From the NCBI GenBank assembly GCA_919902765.1, contig CAKKRP010000028.1, positions 6,743-70,742 on the forward strand: 64,000 bases of DNA, given 5' to 3'. Source of the DNA: Gammaproteobacteria bacterium. Its GTDB lineage: Bacteria; Pseudomonadota; Gammaproteobacteria; S012-40. A program made the position numbers and the translations under genes. The notes under the pieces are model-generated. The model had not been told where the DNA came from and did not search any database. It worked only from the letters and a program-made list of their open reading frames with translations. This document shows positions 59,474 to 64,000 of the stretch, in pieces (the stretch's first letter is position 1; each line of letters begins with the position of its first letter).

Positions 59474-59681
59474 ACCGATTAAATAGTTGACTTCGGTCAC
59501 ACAACCTATTGCAGGCGCGCAAATTCCGCCTACTATGTCACACAAATAATGTAATGTTATATATATTATTGAAACATATAAATAATTACAATATTTTTCA
59601 GCTGCAACACAAACTTACACACGTAAAGGTTTGCAAAAAAAGTTCGTTATAGTACGCAGTCCACCTGATAAAGACATCACA

Positions 59682-61076
59682 ATGAATATGCGCAACAGAT
59701 TGGTACATACGCAATGGATTTTAGGCCTCTGTCTAGGATGGACGATACAACAACCCGCTGCCGCGCTGAGCTTGGCGCAAGAGGCGCTCACGCATACCGC
59801 TATAGGTCAGCCGCTACGCGCGGAGATCGCGATCAACGCCTTCTCTGAGGCCGAACTCGATTCCTTACAGGTGGATTTAGCGCCCAGCCAAGAATATGCA
59901 AATCTGGGCTTGGACTATGCCACGCTGGCCAAACAGCTTCAGTTTACTATAGAACGTCGTAATGGCGCTGCGTTAATAGCGATTATGTCACAATCCGGCA
60001 TGCGCGATCCGGCGCTGCCGTTAATGTTGGATATTCAATGGTCGGGTGGCCATTTAATGCGTGAGTATCCGGTTGTTCTAGATATGCCACAATTTCAAGT
60101 CGTAGAGCGCAGCGTTGCCACTGCGGCGCAAACGCCTGCACCGATACGTGTAGCGGAGCCCATTGCGGTTGTAGACGCCGTTGTTAATAATACCAAAACG
60201 GCCGCCCCGGCCGTCGCCCATGTTGCGCAAGCGCCTACGCAAACACAAAACGTGGTGAAACCATCGTCTAATCGCTACGGGCCTGTCAAAGGTGGAGAAA
60301 CACTTTCTGAAATAGCGATGCGTGTGCGTCCAGACCCGGCGCTGAGTTTACCGCAAGTGATCCTAGCGTTGTATGAGCGCAATCCTGAGGCATTTATCGA
60401 CAATGATATTCATCAACTCCAGAAGGGTGTCAGCTTAGCCTTGCCCGAAATAGATATATATCGCGCGACTTCGCGCGCTGAGGCCCGTGTAGCGTTAGAA
60501 GATATCCTTGATGGAGCGGATTCCGCAACACCGCGCACCGCACATACGCTGATAATTGGACCGCTAAAAGAGGGTTCCATGGTGGCGGAAAATACGCCTA
60601 CTAATGCGCCCGGCGATAGCAAAAATGCGACTATCGATGCCACGCGCAAACATTTAGACGACGCCAATGCCTTGACCGCGCAACTGCGTCGAGAAAATGA
60701 GGCCTTGCAAAATAAAATCTTGGCCTTGCAACAGCAATCGCAGACCTTGTTACAGCAATTGGCCGCGCGCGGTGTCGACATACCGAATGCCCCGACGACT
60801 GCGCCCACGGCCTCTGTCGCTGCAATGAATACGTCAGCCTTACCGGTCAATAACGCCGCTAAACCTGCGCCTGCCTCGACCACTACGACGACCAAAGTGG
60901 CGGCGCGTCGCATCACCCCGGTGCCTGGCAATGGTCCGGATGGTACGTTGATCGTCTTGTTGGCGGCGGTGGTTACTTCTGCGGCCGGGCTCGCACAGGT
61001 CATGACCGATGAGAATCGACAGAAAGTTTCGGATTGGTTCAACGGTTTGCTGCGTAAGAGTCATGCAAGCACATAA
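59682..61076 (+). CDS. FimV-like LysM-motif membrane protein (N-terminal periplasmic domain + TM)
   Basis: Signal peptide after the internal Met (MNMRNRL…AAALSLA), a FimV-type LysM-like peptidoglycan-binding segment (YGPVKGGETLSEIAMRVRPDPALSLPQVILALYERNPEAFIDNDIHQLQKGVSLALP), a Pro/Ala-rich linker and a C-terminal TM. Shorter than canonical FimV. Confidence 0.45.
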   Translation: MNMRNRLVHTQWILGLCLGWTIQQPAAALSLAQEALTHTAIGQPLRAEIAINAFSEAELDSLQVDLAPSQEYANLGLDYATLAKQLQFTIERRNGAALIAIMSQSGMRDPALPLMLDIQWSGGHLMREYPVVLDMPQFQVVERSVATAAQTPAPIRVAEPIAVVDAVVNNTKTAAPAVAHVAQAPTQTQNVVKPSSNRYGPVKGGETLSEIAMRVRPDPALSLPQVILALYERNPEAFIDNDIHQLQKGVSLALPEIDIYRATSRAEARVALEDILDGADSATPRTAHTLIIGPLKEGSMVAENTPTNAPGDSKNATIDATRKHLDDANALTAQLRRENEALQNKILALQQQSQTLLQQLAARGVDIPNAPTTAPTASVAAMNTSALPVNNAAKPAPASTTTTTKVAARRITPVPGNGPDGTLIVLLAAVVTSAAGLAQVMTDENRQKVSDWFNGLLRKSHAST

Positions 61077-61096
61077 TTAAAAAAGTCGAAATTAAG

Positions 61097-61131
61097 AGGC
61101 GCAATAATTACAAGTTATTGCGCCTTTTTTA
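61097..61131 (+). terminator. Rho-independent terminator
   Basis: AGGCGCAATAA-ttacaag-TTATTGCGCCT hairpin followed by TTTTTTATT. Confidence 0.8.
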
Positions 61132-61266
61132 TTGCCTCTATAAAGCCGCGTAGTTCGCTCACTTCCAATGGCAACTCTTCCGTTATAATTCGACAATTCG
61201 CGCGAACTCTGCTAGCTTTTACATATGGGATAGAGAATATATTTTAGCTTATGGAGGAGATTCAAA

Positions 61267-62031
61267 ATGTTTATAGATGCCAAGCTTAAATTCCTTGTTG
61301 TTGCAACCCTATTCTACGCAGGTGCTGTTTGCGGCTACGATCTACCTAATCATTATAATTTGTTAGGCCCACAAGTCCAAATCGATTATACAGTGCCCAA
61401 AGCGGTCAATATGCCTGTCTTGATACTACGTCAGCATCACAAAGTCTCTCAATTTGCGGCCGACCAGATACAAACCACTGATACGCTCATGGGACAATGG
61501 GTGACGATAACGATAGCGCAGATTGTGGATTTACAAACTGAGACACTTTCGTTTTTGTTACCCAAAATTCAATTGGACAATGACACGGCCTATTTTCGTA
61601 GCGAGTTGATCTACACCATACACAAAACCACCATCGCAGGACCGGACTTGGTGCGTGGACCGGTGCAAATATACCGGCCCGCCCCTCTGTTCGGCAGGGC
61701 GACATACGTGCCGCCTACAGGCGATATATTGGGTACATTGGAAGGTAACGTCACGTTAATTCACACCTGCCCAGGCCCAGAGCTTCCAGGCCAAAATTGT
61801 ACGGCTCCCTATGTTGATGCCGCTGTGCAAGTGCTCAATGCGCGCGGTGAGGCAGTGGCAAAAGCGACGACAGACAAAAATGGCTATTTTAACACGCAGG
61901 TTGCCAGTGGCAGCTATACGGTACATGTAGCGACCACCGCAGTATTACCACGTTGTGGAGATGAACCAGTAACGATCTTGCCCGATATTGTGGTGCAAGT
62001 AAAAGTGTATTGTGATTTAGGTCTGCGGTAA
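61267..62031 (+). CDS. Secreted hypothetical protein with C-terminal carboxypeptidase-regulatory-like (Cna-B/transthyretin-like) fold
   Basis: Signal peptide (KLKFLVVATLFYAGAVCG), a strong SD GGAGGAG, and a C-terminal segment (VQVLNARGEAVAKATTDKNGYFNTQVASGSYTVHVA) typical of CarboxypepD_reg beta-sandwich domains. Confidence 0.45.
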   Translation: MFIDAKLKFLVVATLFYAGAVCGYDLPNHYNLLGPQVQIDYTVPKAVNMPVLILRQHHKVSQFAADQIQTTDTLMGQWVTITIAQIVDLQTETLSFLLPKIQLDNDTAYFRSELIYTIHKTTIAGPDLVRGPVQIYRPAPLFGRATYVPPTGDILGTLEGNVTLIHTCPGPELPGQNCTAPYVDAAVQVLNARGEAVAKATTDKNGYFNTQVASGSYTVHVATTAVLPRCGDEPVTILPDIVVQVKVYCDLGLR

Positions 62032-62070: not shown

Positions 62071-62475
62071 TTATGTGGTACTAATTTCTTTGAGCAATTC
62101 GGGGTGTCGATCCAATAACTGAAATAGCTTCACCAGCGCGAGCGGCGGCTTAGTCCTGCCGCTCTCGTAACGAGAAAACGCATTGACTCCACCGCCGAAA
62201 ATCAACGCTGCTTCGCGCTGGTCTAGACCAAGTTTTTTACGCACCTTGGCGATAAAAGCGGGATCAATGATGGAGGCGTTCACCTGTTTATTAAACTTCA
62301 CCATCGCCTGATGGGTGCGCGCAGATTCTGTAACGCCTAACACAATCTCTCCACAAGCAGAGCAGTATTCACCCATCACTGCGGGAATTGTGAATGTCTC
62401 GCCTTTATAGATATAGGGGATGTCACGCGTATCATGCACCAGTGTGGCCGCTCCGCAAGATGGACACTGCATCTT
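62071..62475 (-). CDS. mqsA: MqsA-like antitoxin (YgiT-type zinc finger + XRE HTH)
   Basis: N-terminal CxxC…CxxC zinc ribbon (MQCPSCGAATLVHDTRDIPYIYKGETFTIPAVMGEYCSACGEIVL) resembling MqsA/YgiT, and a C-terminal HTH (…LGLDQREAALIFGGGVNAFSRYESG…). No mqsR-like ORF is adjacent. Confidence 0.65.
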   Translation of the reverse strand, partial: KMQCPSCGAATLVHDTRDIPYIYKGETFTIPAVMGEYCSACGEIVLGVTESARTHQAMVKFNKQVNASIIDPAFIAKVRKKLGLDQREAALIFGGGVNAFSRYESGRTKPPLALVKLFQLLDRHPELLKEISTT

Positions 62476-62967
62476 ATCGCTCCTTGAAGACGCATTAGGC
62501 GCATCTTCTGTCAGAACCAAATCGATATTATCGAAAAATACGTTTTATTAGGCCGCATTTATTTGATACATAATAATATTGCGTGTGGTAGATAAGTCGC
62601 GACGTTATTTGCCAACGTTAACCAAGTAGGTAGTCGGCTAAAAGGACTTTATACTTGAGTCTATTGGGCGTTGACCGTGTATAGAAGAGGACTGAAGCGT
62701 TAATGCGTTTTTGAAGCCTTCAGGCGATATTTTTGGAGCTATTCTAGAGCAACGTTTGGGGTGAGGTACAACGTCTTACTTGTGGATAAAATGAAGTAAC
62801 TTTCGCTTTTTTGAGTATTGGTATTTAATAATATAGTAAAGGCCGCATGTAGCGGCCTTTCATTTGGTGCTCTGAAAGCTTGTTAGCGGACAGGGCGCAT
62901 TTCCCGATGTAGTAACAAGGTGTACTATACATATCGTCAATAGGGAAATCAACTATCAGGGGGAAGT

Positions 62968-64000
62968 ATGATACCGAAGATGCAGTATAGTTTGGCGTTA
63001 GACATGGGTTCAACCTCGCTCGGCTGGTGCTTAATTCGACTAAACGCCGATAAGCGGCCTGTTGCCGTCATCCGCATGGGTGTGCGCATATTCTCTGATG
63101 GGCGTAACCCCGAAGACGGCAGTTCATTGGCCGTGACCCGTCGCACCGCACGACAAATGCGCCGCAGACGCGATCGTCTGCTCCTACGCAAACAACAAAT
63201 GTTGACCGCATTAGTCAAATATGGATTTTTCCCTGAGGATGAAAAGCGAAGGCAAGCGTTAGTGAATCTCGATCCCTATATCCTCCGTAAAAAGGGCTTG
63301 TATGAACGGCTCACCAGCGAGGAATTCGGCAGGGCGCTTTTTCATATCAATCAAAGACGCGGATTTTTAAGTAATCGAAAAACCGATTCAAAAGATAAAG
63401 AAAGCGGTCTGCTCAAAAAGTCTATCGTCGATTTACGCGAAAAACTGGCCAAGGAAAATTGCCAGACACTAGGCGAATGGTTGGCGAATCGCCATGCGGC
63501 GCGATTAAGCGTCAGGGCGCGCCTGCACGGAACAACACAAAAGGATAAGGCATACGATTTCTATGCCGACCGTGCGATGGTAGCACATGAATTCGACGCA
63601 TTGTGGGGCAAACAAAAAAGCCTGAATCCCGAGTTATACACCGATACCGCGCGCGATGTTCTAAAGGATGTATTGTTGTATCAACGCCAGCTCAAACCAG
63701 TTCGTCCAGGTCGATGTACATTAATGCCAGACGAAGAACGCGCACCCTTGGCGTTGCCCAGCGTTCAAAAGTTTAAGATTTATCAAGACCTCAATCATCT
63801 GCGTATACTGAACGACGATTTAACGGAAAAGCCACCGCTAACGATTGAACAGCGAGATATATTGGCGAGACATCTCGATAAAGGCGATAACGCGACGTTT
63901 AAAACAGACGTCCGCAAATTGTTAGGCCTAAACGCAAAGACACGCTTTAATCTAGAGGACGGTAAGCGCGACCGATTGAAAGGCAATGCGACGACCGCGA
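62968..64000 (+). CDS. cas9: CRISPR-associated endonuclease Cas9 (type II-C-like), N-terminal 344 aa; continues beyond window
   Basis: RuvC-I motif with the catalytic Asp (YSLALDMGSTSLGWCL), and an Arg-rich bridge helix (SLAVTRRTARQMRRRRDRLLLRKQQM). The HINQRRGFLSNRK segment parallels Neisseria Cas9 HLIKHRGYLSQRK. Strong SD AGGGGGAAG before the ATG at 62968. Confidence 0.85.
   Translation, partial: MIPKMQYSLALDMGSTSLGWCLIRLNADKRPVAVIRMGVRIFSDGRNPEDGSSLAVTRRTARQMRRRRDRLLLRKQQMLTALVKYGFFPEDEKRRQALVNLDPYILRKKGLYERLTSEEFGRALFHINQRRGFLSNRKTDSKDKESGLLKKSIVDLREKLAKENCQTLGEWLANRHAARLSVRARLHGTTQKDKAYDFYADRAMVAHEFDALWGKQKSLNPELYTDTARDVLKDVLLYQRQLKPVRPGRCTLMPDEERAPLALPSVQKFKIYQDLNHLRILNDDLTEKPPLTIEQRDILARHLDKGDNATFKTDVRKLLGLNAKTRFNLEDGKRDRLKGNATTA

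Follow-up and report, generated by a model that had tools for sequence, protein, structure and literature searches.

The 64,000-nt stretch of gammaproteobacterial DNA analyzed here (contig CAKKRP010000028.1, positions 6,743 to 70,742; hereafter the window) ends within a cas9 gene, and directly upstream of this gene we identified a ~90-nt element on the opposite strand that is predicted to encode the trans-activating CRISPR RNA (tracrRNA) of a CRISPR-Cas locus of type II-C. In same-strain sequence that continues beyond the window, cas9 runs into a partial CRISPR repeat. These data make it likely that the window ends in a type II-C locus with a divergent tracrRNA and a cas9 truncated by a deletion, without cas1 and cas2, and that this locus is decayed. 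A preliminary description of the window had proposed the gap between mqsA and cas9 as the prime candidate for the tracrRNA, and this is borne out by the minus-strand element at 62827-62918, which all 14 related loci share. The features of the locus are as follows.

62968 to 64000, plus strand: 5' third of cas9, comprising 344 of its 986 codons; beyond the edge the gene runs on to window-equivalent position 65928.
62924 to 62952, minus strand: predicted sigma-70 promoter of the tracrRNA, within the cas9 5' leader.
62827 to 62918, minus strand: predicted tracrRNA of ~90 nt, divergent from cas9, recognized by covariance model, conservation and fold.
62881 to 62917, minus strand: anti-repeat, which pairs with the CRISPR RNA (crRNA) repeat of the strain itself.
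62869 to 62879, minus strand: scaffold stem-loop 1 (GCU-UUCAG-AGC); outer pairs invariant, but weakly supported and ambiguous in alignment.
62838 to 62860, minus strand: intrinsic terminator hairpin, followed by UUUACUAUAUUAUU on the minus strand.

Relatives were found by scanning one genome per species, which gave 14 loci that share 65-74% identity with the window in the N-terminus of Cas9; counts out of 15 refer to the window plus these loci. A ~95-nt block directly upstream of cas9 is common to the window and all 14 relatives, and the outer flanks are unrelated. On the minus strand this block presents, in order, a repeat-like segment (as the plus-strand repeat), the scaffold CGCUAACAAGCUGAAAGAUGCACCAAAUGAG, a GC-rich hairpin and a U-rich tail, with the scaffold nearly invariant across the loci. 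The order anti-repeat, scaffold, terminator is as expected of a tracrRNA. A covariance model of the element has a single match in the window, at 62827-62918 on the minus strand (91.9 bits), and, as an anti-repeat would lead one to expect, also gives weak plus-strand matches to every CRISPR repeat in the relatives. Compared with its shuffles, the candidate RNA has the better fold (z = -2.85). A search of 62775-62918 with Rfam 15 gave nothing better than E = 0.97, the sole match being Trp_leader noise, so the curated Rfam models evidently do not cover the tracrRNA of this clade.

The hairpin at the 3' end of the element has a perfect 9-bp stem, AAAGGCCGC/GCGGCCTTT, formed by 62838-62846 and 62852-62860, and a terminator scan calls it on the minus strand. 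Its stem is kept in all 15 loci, where every cell is paired and four of the seven pairs are compensatory, and when the partner columns are slid as controls pairing falls to 24-58%; judged by this alignment, the terminator hairpin is well beyond chance. The clean hairpin with a T-stretch that had been reported here is thus real and belongs to the tracrRNA, but its coordinates were one base off, the quoted string lying at 62839-62865, and rather than being readable on either strand it serves as a minus-strand terminator. In stem-loop 1, the outer G-C and C-G pairs are invariant across the 15 loci, and locus L004 has GCC/GGC instead of GCU/AGC. Three loci (L006, L008 and L009) carry a 12-nt insertion in the loop of stem-loop 1 (alignment A3, columns 49-60), which folds into an additional small hairpin, GGCUUUUAGCC / AACUUUUAGUU, in two co-varying forms. 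The predicted promoter consists of a -35 element TTGATT (62952-62947), a 17-nt spacer and a -10 element TATAGT (62929-62924) on the minus strand, with a scan score of 9/12. Each of the 15 loci has a -35/-10 pair equally far from the anti-repeat, and the -35 element reads TTGnnn in 14 of them.

The leader also takes part in a 10-nt inverted repeat (62899-62908 and 62940-62949; ATTTCCCGAT / ATAGGGAAAT, 90% complementary) that links the anti-repeat core to the cas9 leader, its leader half sitting just upstream of the cas9 ribosome-binding site. The sequence GGGAAATCAAC of this inverted repeat is also present in L002 and absent from the other relatives, and the repeat could reflect chance or a lineage-specific leader structure.

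An anti-repeat complementary to the CRISPR repeat had been named as the thing to look for in the gap, and it was found at 62881-62917 on the minus strand: paired with the strain's own crRNA repeat it gives a duplex of -41.7 kcal/mol, compared with -15.4 +/- 3.3 kcal/mol for shuffled sequences. The perfect 15-bp core of this duplex, CATCGGGAAATGCGC, occurs once in the window (62895-62909, minus strand). Further, the anti-repeat of the window has GGGAAATG where all relatives have GGGATATG, and the strain's repeat carries the exact complement of this lineage-specific GGGAAATG change. The 12 relatives with an array form repeat:anti-repeat duplexes of -43 to -55 kcal/mol, and changes in repeat and anti-repeat are mirrored among them as well (CCCAAT/ATTGGG, CTCAAT/ATTGAG and CCCGGTG/CACCGGG). 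The minus-strand orientation of the duplex is the more stable in 10 of the 12. The strand is fixed mainly by geometry: scaffold and terminator come after the anti-repeat on the minus strand only, and that strand alone has a conserved promoter, which argues that the crRNAs would be antisense to cas9 and, on this sequence evidence, transcribed from the minus strand of the array.

In the crRNA sense, the repeats of this clade (the arrays of L002-L014, and the repeat at 3168-3196 of contig L021, introduced below) start with GTT and end in a -10-like TAnnnT, namely TATACT in this strain and TAGACT, TAAACT or TACACT elsewhere. Type II-C arrays of Neisseria and Campylobacter have promoters embedded in their repeats, and by analogy the repeat ends suggest that repeat-embedded promoters may be present in this clade. 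After the deletion described below, transcription from such promoters would enter the cas9 3' end directly, in the antisense direction.

The gene at the window edge is a type II-C-like cas9, as had been proposed: 62968-64000 on the plus strand translates as an open frame of 344 codons with no stop, and this fragment matches the profile TIGR01865 at 2.4e-70 over residues 7-339 as well as Pfam Cas9_a. The RuvC-I aspartate, D12 within LALDMGSTS, and a bridge helix rich in arginine (R58, R59, R62 and R65-R68), both of which had been read from the N-terminus, are invariant in an alignment of 34 family members. The strain's own Cas9 is a protein of 986 aa (MEK6748278.1, here P0145) from a metagenome-assembled genome (MAG) assigned to Pseudomonadota, encoded on a 73,512-nt contig and identical to the window fragment at 344 of 344 positions. 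Columns that are invariant with this protein included are D12, R58-R68, E511/E515, H608, N631 and H748/D752 (numbering of family member P0121), and Pfam HNH_4 and RuvC_III are on record for it. Degenerate HNH or RuvC residues in the full-length protein would have spoken against the proposed CRISPR-Cas locus; from the alignment, the catalytic residues of both domains are intact in P0145, though the C-terminus, in the protospacer adjacent motif (PAM)-interacting domain, is truncated. We assign subtype II-C by Cas9 homology and by the layout in the relatives, 11 of which have cas9-cas1-cas2-array with 36-nt repeats, 30-nt spacers and no fourth gene.

P0145 has 17 private substitutions at columns that are otherwise invariant, mostly conservative, compared with no more than 7 in any of the 33 other members; these may reflect its outgroup position in the set or relaxed constraint. 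Among the relatives, locus L008 (an Aquabacterium MAG from an Oxford Nanopore Technologies assembly) has two repeats left and a Cas9 annotated as a 369-aa fragment (P0008) beside an intact tracrRNA, and its apparent degeneration may be true decay or the product of long-read frameshift errors.

To follow the gene past the window edge we relied on same-strain sequences. With the 344-aa fragment as query, only proteins of at most 600 aa were returned; P0145 was retrieved with a chimeric query joining the strain's first 440 Cas9 residues, taken from contig L015, to the C-terminus of a relative. Between L015 and the window there are 2 differences in 5050 nt, and the 3.2-kb Logan contig L021 matches window positions 62789-64000 with 0 mismatches over 1212 nt, so that L021 position plus 62788 gives the window-equivalent coordinate. 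Where they overlap, the window, L021, L016/L020, L017 and L019 are identical.

In L021, cas9 is fused in frame to the 3' part of a CRISPR repeat, of which 26 nt precede the stop codon (L021 3111-3136). The sequence runs ...GCTTCTCTGAACGAT ATCGGGAAATGCGCTCTGACCGGAAC C TAA, followed by a 31-nt spacer and then AGTATACATCATCGGGAAATGCGCTCTGA to the contig end; at the junction itself cas9 CTGAACGAT is followed by repeat ATCGGGAAATGCGCTCTGACCGGAAC. A full repeat starts at L021 3168, at normal spacing after the partial one, so that 1.8 repeats fall within the contig. The last 9 aa of P0145, IGKCALTGT, are encoded by the CRISPR repeat, and an intact relative (1021 aa) can be aligned with it as far as residue 977 of its 986, which corresponds to 974 in the relative. 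The 986-aa protein is on record in identical form from NCBI, MGnify, ENA and Logan. The CRISPR array expected beyond 64 kb does follow cas9, with adjacent repeats of ~36 nt. The cas1 and cas2 genes expected just beyond the edge do not, since L021 runs cas9 into the partial repeat: neither gene was found within the 64-kb window or L021, nor was any array found elsewhere in the window. At this locus the strain thus lacks the layout of cas9 with cas1 and cas2 (and without csn2 or cas4), having its array directly after cas9.

The PAM-interacting domain of P0145 is accordingly incomplete at its C-terminus, with ~47 conserved residues absent. Residues N976, R980, Y990, K993, S997, R1004, S1009 and G1012 in the lost segment are invariant or nearly so. 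In an AlphaFold (AF2) model of an intact relative, this segment consists of two short helices and two strands with a predicted local distance difference test score (pLDDT) of 57-87; the model is poor overall (mean pLDDT 59, predicted template modeling score 0.39) and was used for C-terminal secondary structure only. In its RuvC and HNH regions, Cas9 of this family (~1000-1080 aa) aligns at up to 2.6e-72 to type II-C Cas9 proteins of solved structure, among them 6jdq and related entries, which we take to be Neisseria meningitidis Cas9. The PAM-interacting domain is too diverged from these structures for sequence alignment, and PAM-contacting residues could not be mapped.

From these features we propose the following history. 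A horizontally mobile type II-C cassette, belonging to the betaproteobacterial / gamma proteobacterium HdN1 Cas9 clade, would have its left edge at the end of the window. A ~90-nt tracrRNA would be transcribed from the minus strand by a sigma-70 promoter in the cas9 leader; its 5' 37 nt (62917-62881) would be the anti-repeat, pairing with the first ~26 nt of each crRNA repeat, next would come a short scaffold composed of AACAA, a small stem-loop and CCAAAUGA, and the GC-rich hairpin 62860-62838 with its U-rich tail would terminate the transcript. Transcription of the array from its minus strand would yield crRNAs antisense to the cas genes, with each repeat ending in the -10-like TAnnnT. A deletion would then have joined cas9 codon 977 to approximately position 11 of a repeat; the PAM-interacting domain would have lost its final ~47 residues, and cas1, cas2 and the proximal array would have gone altogether, leaving the tracrRNA, a cas9 without its C-terminus and an array. 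Judged from the junction, a single deletion from cas9 codon ~977 into a repeat, with orientation unchanged, is the most economical explanation. Without cas1, cas2 and the Cas9 C-terminus the locus would acquire no spacers and most likely perform no PAM-dependent cleavage, which points to a recently decayed locus. On its sequence, then, the CRISPR system of this strain is probably decaying. The mqsA gene would be an unrelated solo regulator that flanks the insertion by chance, and the rest of the gap would be junction DNA carrying the mqsA promoter.

Several points weigh against this explanation. The expression of the tracrRNA, its ends and the polarity of the crRNAs are predictions, and the terminator is followed in the window by a weaker U-tract (UUUACUAUAUUAUU) than in most relatives. 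For the window's own pair, stability slightly favors the plus-strand duplex (-45.2 vs -41.7 kcal/mol), which is the stabler one in 2 of the 12 relatives too, so the strand argument from G:U pairing is supportive only. The junction lies outside the window, its support being one 3.2-kb Logan contig and the records of the 986-aa protein, and cas1 and cas2 could be located downstream of the array or elsewhere in the genome. Finally, the loss of Cas9 function is inferred from conservation and from the low-confidence AF2 model, and the reading frame is otherwise intact over 977 codons with its catalytic residues kept.

A rival explanation is that the strain has an intact locus, with full cas9, cas1, cas2 and array, and that the junction of L021 and P0145 arose in assembly or belongs to a deletion variant present in a minority. 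A single contig spans the junction, short-read assembly of CRISPR arrays is notoriously difficult, and the several database sources of P0145 may trace to one assembly. However, the repeat segment at the junction is only 26 nt long, below typical assembly k-mers, so that reads should have to span from unique cas9 sequence into spacer 1; L021 crosses the junction without a branch; the Logan contig is a single-run assembly independent of the MAG; and one contig of 50-200 kb bears MqsA, its 254-aa neighbor and P0145. Given this pattern, an intact locus appears improbable. Because it lies outside the window and draws on one independent contig and database records, we hold the deletion junction to be likely rather than certain.

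Exact-sequence scans of JGI (Joint Genome Institute) metagenomes gave 0 matches with the window cas9 end and 0 with the strain's repeat, and spacer 1 had 0 matches to viral contigs. The same strain (0-2 mismatches per 1-5 kb; L015-L021) recurs in ERZ1292636, ERR3858122, ERR3858126 and SRR32696680. The contig names of ERZ1292636 begin with 'Hain_', which looks like the Hainich groundwater site. As the strain recurs in several runs and assemblies, the truncated locus looks fixed in a persistent population.

The truncated Cas9 might instead be functional, as a nuclease with altered or relaxed PAM requirements or as an RNA-guided binder or regulator, in an interference-only module under selection. 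Its 977 open codons with all RuvC and HNH catalytic residues, the intact promoter, anti-repeat and terminator of the tracrRNA, the compensated change in repeat and anti-repeat, and the near-identity of the locus across several sequencing runs (2 differences in 5050 nt for L015) are all consistent with such a role. On the other hand, an intact reading frame is equally expected after a recent deletion, and the 47 lost residues are conserved and predicted to be structured in the family. Loss of part of the PAM-interacting domain abolishes activity in the Cas9 proteins that have been studied. We therefore regard a functional truncated Cas9 as unlikely. More specifically, a minimized type II-C module comprising the tracrRNA, a Cas9 without its last ~47 residues but with a repeat-encoded tail, and an array of self-promoting repeats might be kept by selection in a groundwater bacterium, acting in interference only or in regulation with altered or relaxed PAM dependence; this we consider a quite unlikely, speculative scenario.

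It is highly improbable that the element is no tracrRNA at all but a degenerate orphan repeat beside a terminator that acts on the plus strand or in both directions, or else a leader that regulates the cas9 mRNA in cis, for although the hairpin with TTTCATTT reads as a plus-strand terminator too, the plus-strand copy resembles a crRNA-sense repeat whose -10-like end could on inspection drive cas9, and the plus-strand duplex energy is similar, the hairpin comes before the anti-repeat on the plus strand, there is no upstream plus-strand gene to terminate (mqsA being on the minus strand), the 40-nt scaffold is nearly invariant while repeats and anti-repeats co-vary, the minus-strand promoter and U-tract are conserved in position with the order anti-repeat, scaffold, terminator present on that strand only, and the sister clade has an annotated divergent tracrRNA (PMC4624362).

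Upstream of this locus, two further features complete the region.

62473 to 62826, no strand: AT-rich spacer from mqsA to the tracrRNA terminator; GC ~37%, no Pfam match and no flank homology.
62071 to 62472, minus strand: solo mqsA-family antitoxin / helix-turn-helix (HTH) regulator, 133 aa from its ATG, outside the CRISPR locus.

The mqsA frame can be extended to 62071-62520 on the minus strand. The MqsA profile match begins at the ATG at 62472, however, and this likely start is preceded by an AAGGAG Shine-Dalgarno sequence, so that we take the gene as 62071-62472 and the gap between mqsA and cas9 as 62473-62967 (495 bp). The gap had been described as AT-rich and non-coding, and this is correct: GC content is 40.6% over 62473-62967 and 36.6% over 62521-62840, as opposed to 51.4% for the whole window, and there is no credible open reading frame (ORF). 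A single ORF of at least 60 aa touches the gap, a mechanical 62-aa frame with a TTG start (62825-63013, minus strand); like the other ORFs at 62818-63013, it overlaps with the tracrRNA and with the start of cas9. The suggestion that short anti-CRISPR (Acr) or anti-CRISPR-associated (Aca) type ORFs might be hidden here found no backing, as no ORF of at least 20 aa lies wholly within 62552-62817 on either strand. Further, the Acr/Aca operon layout of a small ORF next to an HTH aca gene was not found, mqsA having no co-oriented neighbor. Searches of the gap with Pfam in six frames gave no signal, the gap spacer showed no homology to the flanks of the relatives and nothing beyond noise in Rfam, and the other 306 nt of the gap do not fold better than shuffles (z = -0.28). 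Presumably the spacer 62473-62826 holds the mqsA promoter and operators. Short imperfect direct repeats occur within it at 62693-62739 (TGAAGCGTTAATGCGTTTT / TGAAGCCTTCAGGCGATAT and TTTTTGAAGC / TTTTTGGAGC).

MqsA matches PF15731 (MqsA_antitoxin) at 2.2e-60 over 130 of 131 profile positions and TIGR03830 at 7.5e-43, and is 65-72% identical to plasmid MqsA proteins. Like the antitoxin of MqsR/MqsA pairs, the 133-aa protein combines an N-terminal CxxC...CxxC zinc ribbon with a C-terminal HTH; unlike in Diaphorobacter pDCB1, where mqsR ends 2 nt before mqsA, the window gene stands without mqsR. The description of this gene as an orphan is well founded: the 350 nt upstream of mqsA contain no mqsR ORF and no Pfam match on six frames, and tblastn with the pDCB1 MqsR had no match in the gap, while the same query found a frameshifted mqsR in a positive control, L022. 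On both searches, an mqsR pseudogene in the gap was rejected. A linkage of mqsA to cas9 was likewise rejected; none of the relatives has a homologue within 10 kb of cas9, which indicates a solo regulator merely abutting the cassette.

In L022, an Azotobacter chroococcum plasmid, mqsR lies at 1213-1495, upstream of an mqsA with 70% identity, and is split over two frames. This frameshifted pseudogene is not in the PLSDB gene table, and from these sequences toxin loss beside a kept mqsA seems to recur. Two palindromes in the mqsA 5' region, GAAGACGCATTAGGCGCATCTTC (62484-62506, just upstream of the Shine-Dalgarno sequence) and TCGATATTATCGA (62521-62533), are candidate operators for MqsA autoregulation, although neither has the E. 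coli form, ACCT(N)AGGT. Farther upstream lie a FimV_N-domain protein (59631-61076; 2.5e-25) and a 254-aa protein (61267-62031), in which a CarboxypepD_reg-like domain is weakly matched. The hairpin that follows the FimV-like gene (61093-61133) has sub-threshold Rfam matches to the plastid psbA 3' untranslated region and STnc40, and looks like a plain terminator.

The locus has a known architecture in a degenerate copy and offers nothing conceptually new for CRISPR biology unless the truncated Cas9 is active. Its value is in annotation: a strand, ends, promoter and terminator can now be predicted for the tracrRNA of a widespread, little-studied proteobacterial Cas9 clade of ~1020 aa, and matched repeat/anti-repeat pairs from 13 loci are usable in single-guide RNA design. 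It also illustrates that a cas9 start at a contig edge is no guarantee of an intact system, since adaptation genes and part of the PAM-interacting domain are lost here.

Among known systems, that of Bordetella pseudohinzii, in the sister clade, has a putative tracrRNA divergent from cas9 and equipped with its own promoter and stem-loop terminator (Ivanov et al. 2015, PMC4624362), and gamma proteobacterium HdN1 occupies a neighboring branch in the Cas9 tree (PMC4624362). HdN1 corresponds to our locus L012, whose Cas9 is 65% identical over the N-terminal part and places the strain in the same or an adjacent clade. The strain shares with B. pseudohinzii, Alicycliphilus denitrificans and HdN1 the divergent upstream tracrRNA, the 36-nt repeats and the ~30-nt spacers. 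It differs from them in the loss of cas1, cas2 and the cas9 3' end, in the fusion of cas9 to a repeat, and in the lineage-specific GGGAAATG core of its repeat and anti-repeat. A more distant comparison is offered by the type II-C system of N. meningitidis, with Nme1Cas9, a tracrRNA and repeat-embedded crRNA promoters, reportedly described by Zhang et al. in 2013. Both tracrRNAs follow the order anti-repeat, AA(G/C), small stem-loop and terminator, and in both systems the repeats, read in crRNA sense, begin with GTT and have a -10-like TAnnnT at their end. The tracrRNA predicted here is shorter, however, with one terminal hairpin, and its companion repeats would carry internal promoters by inference only.

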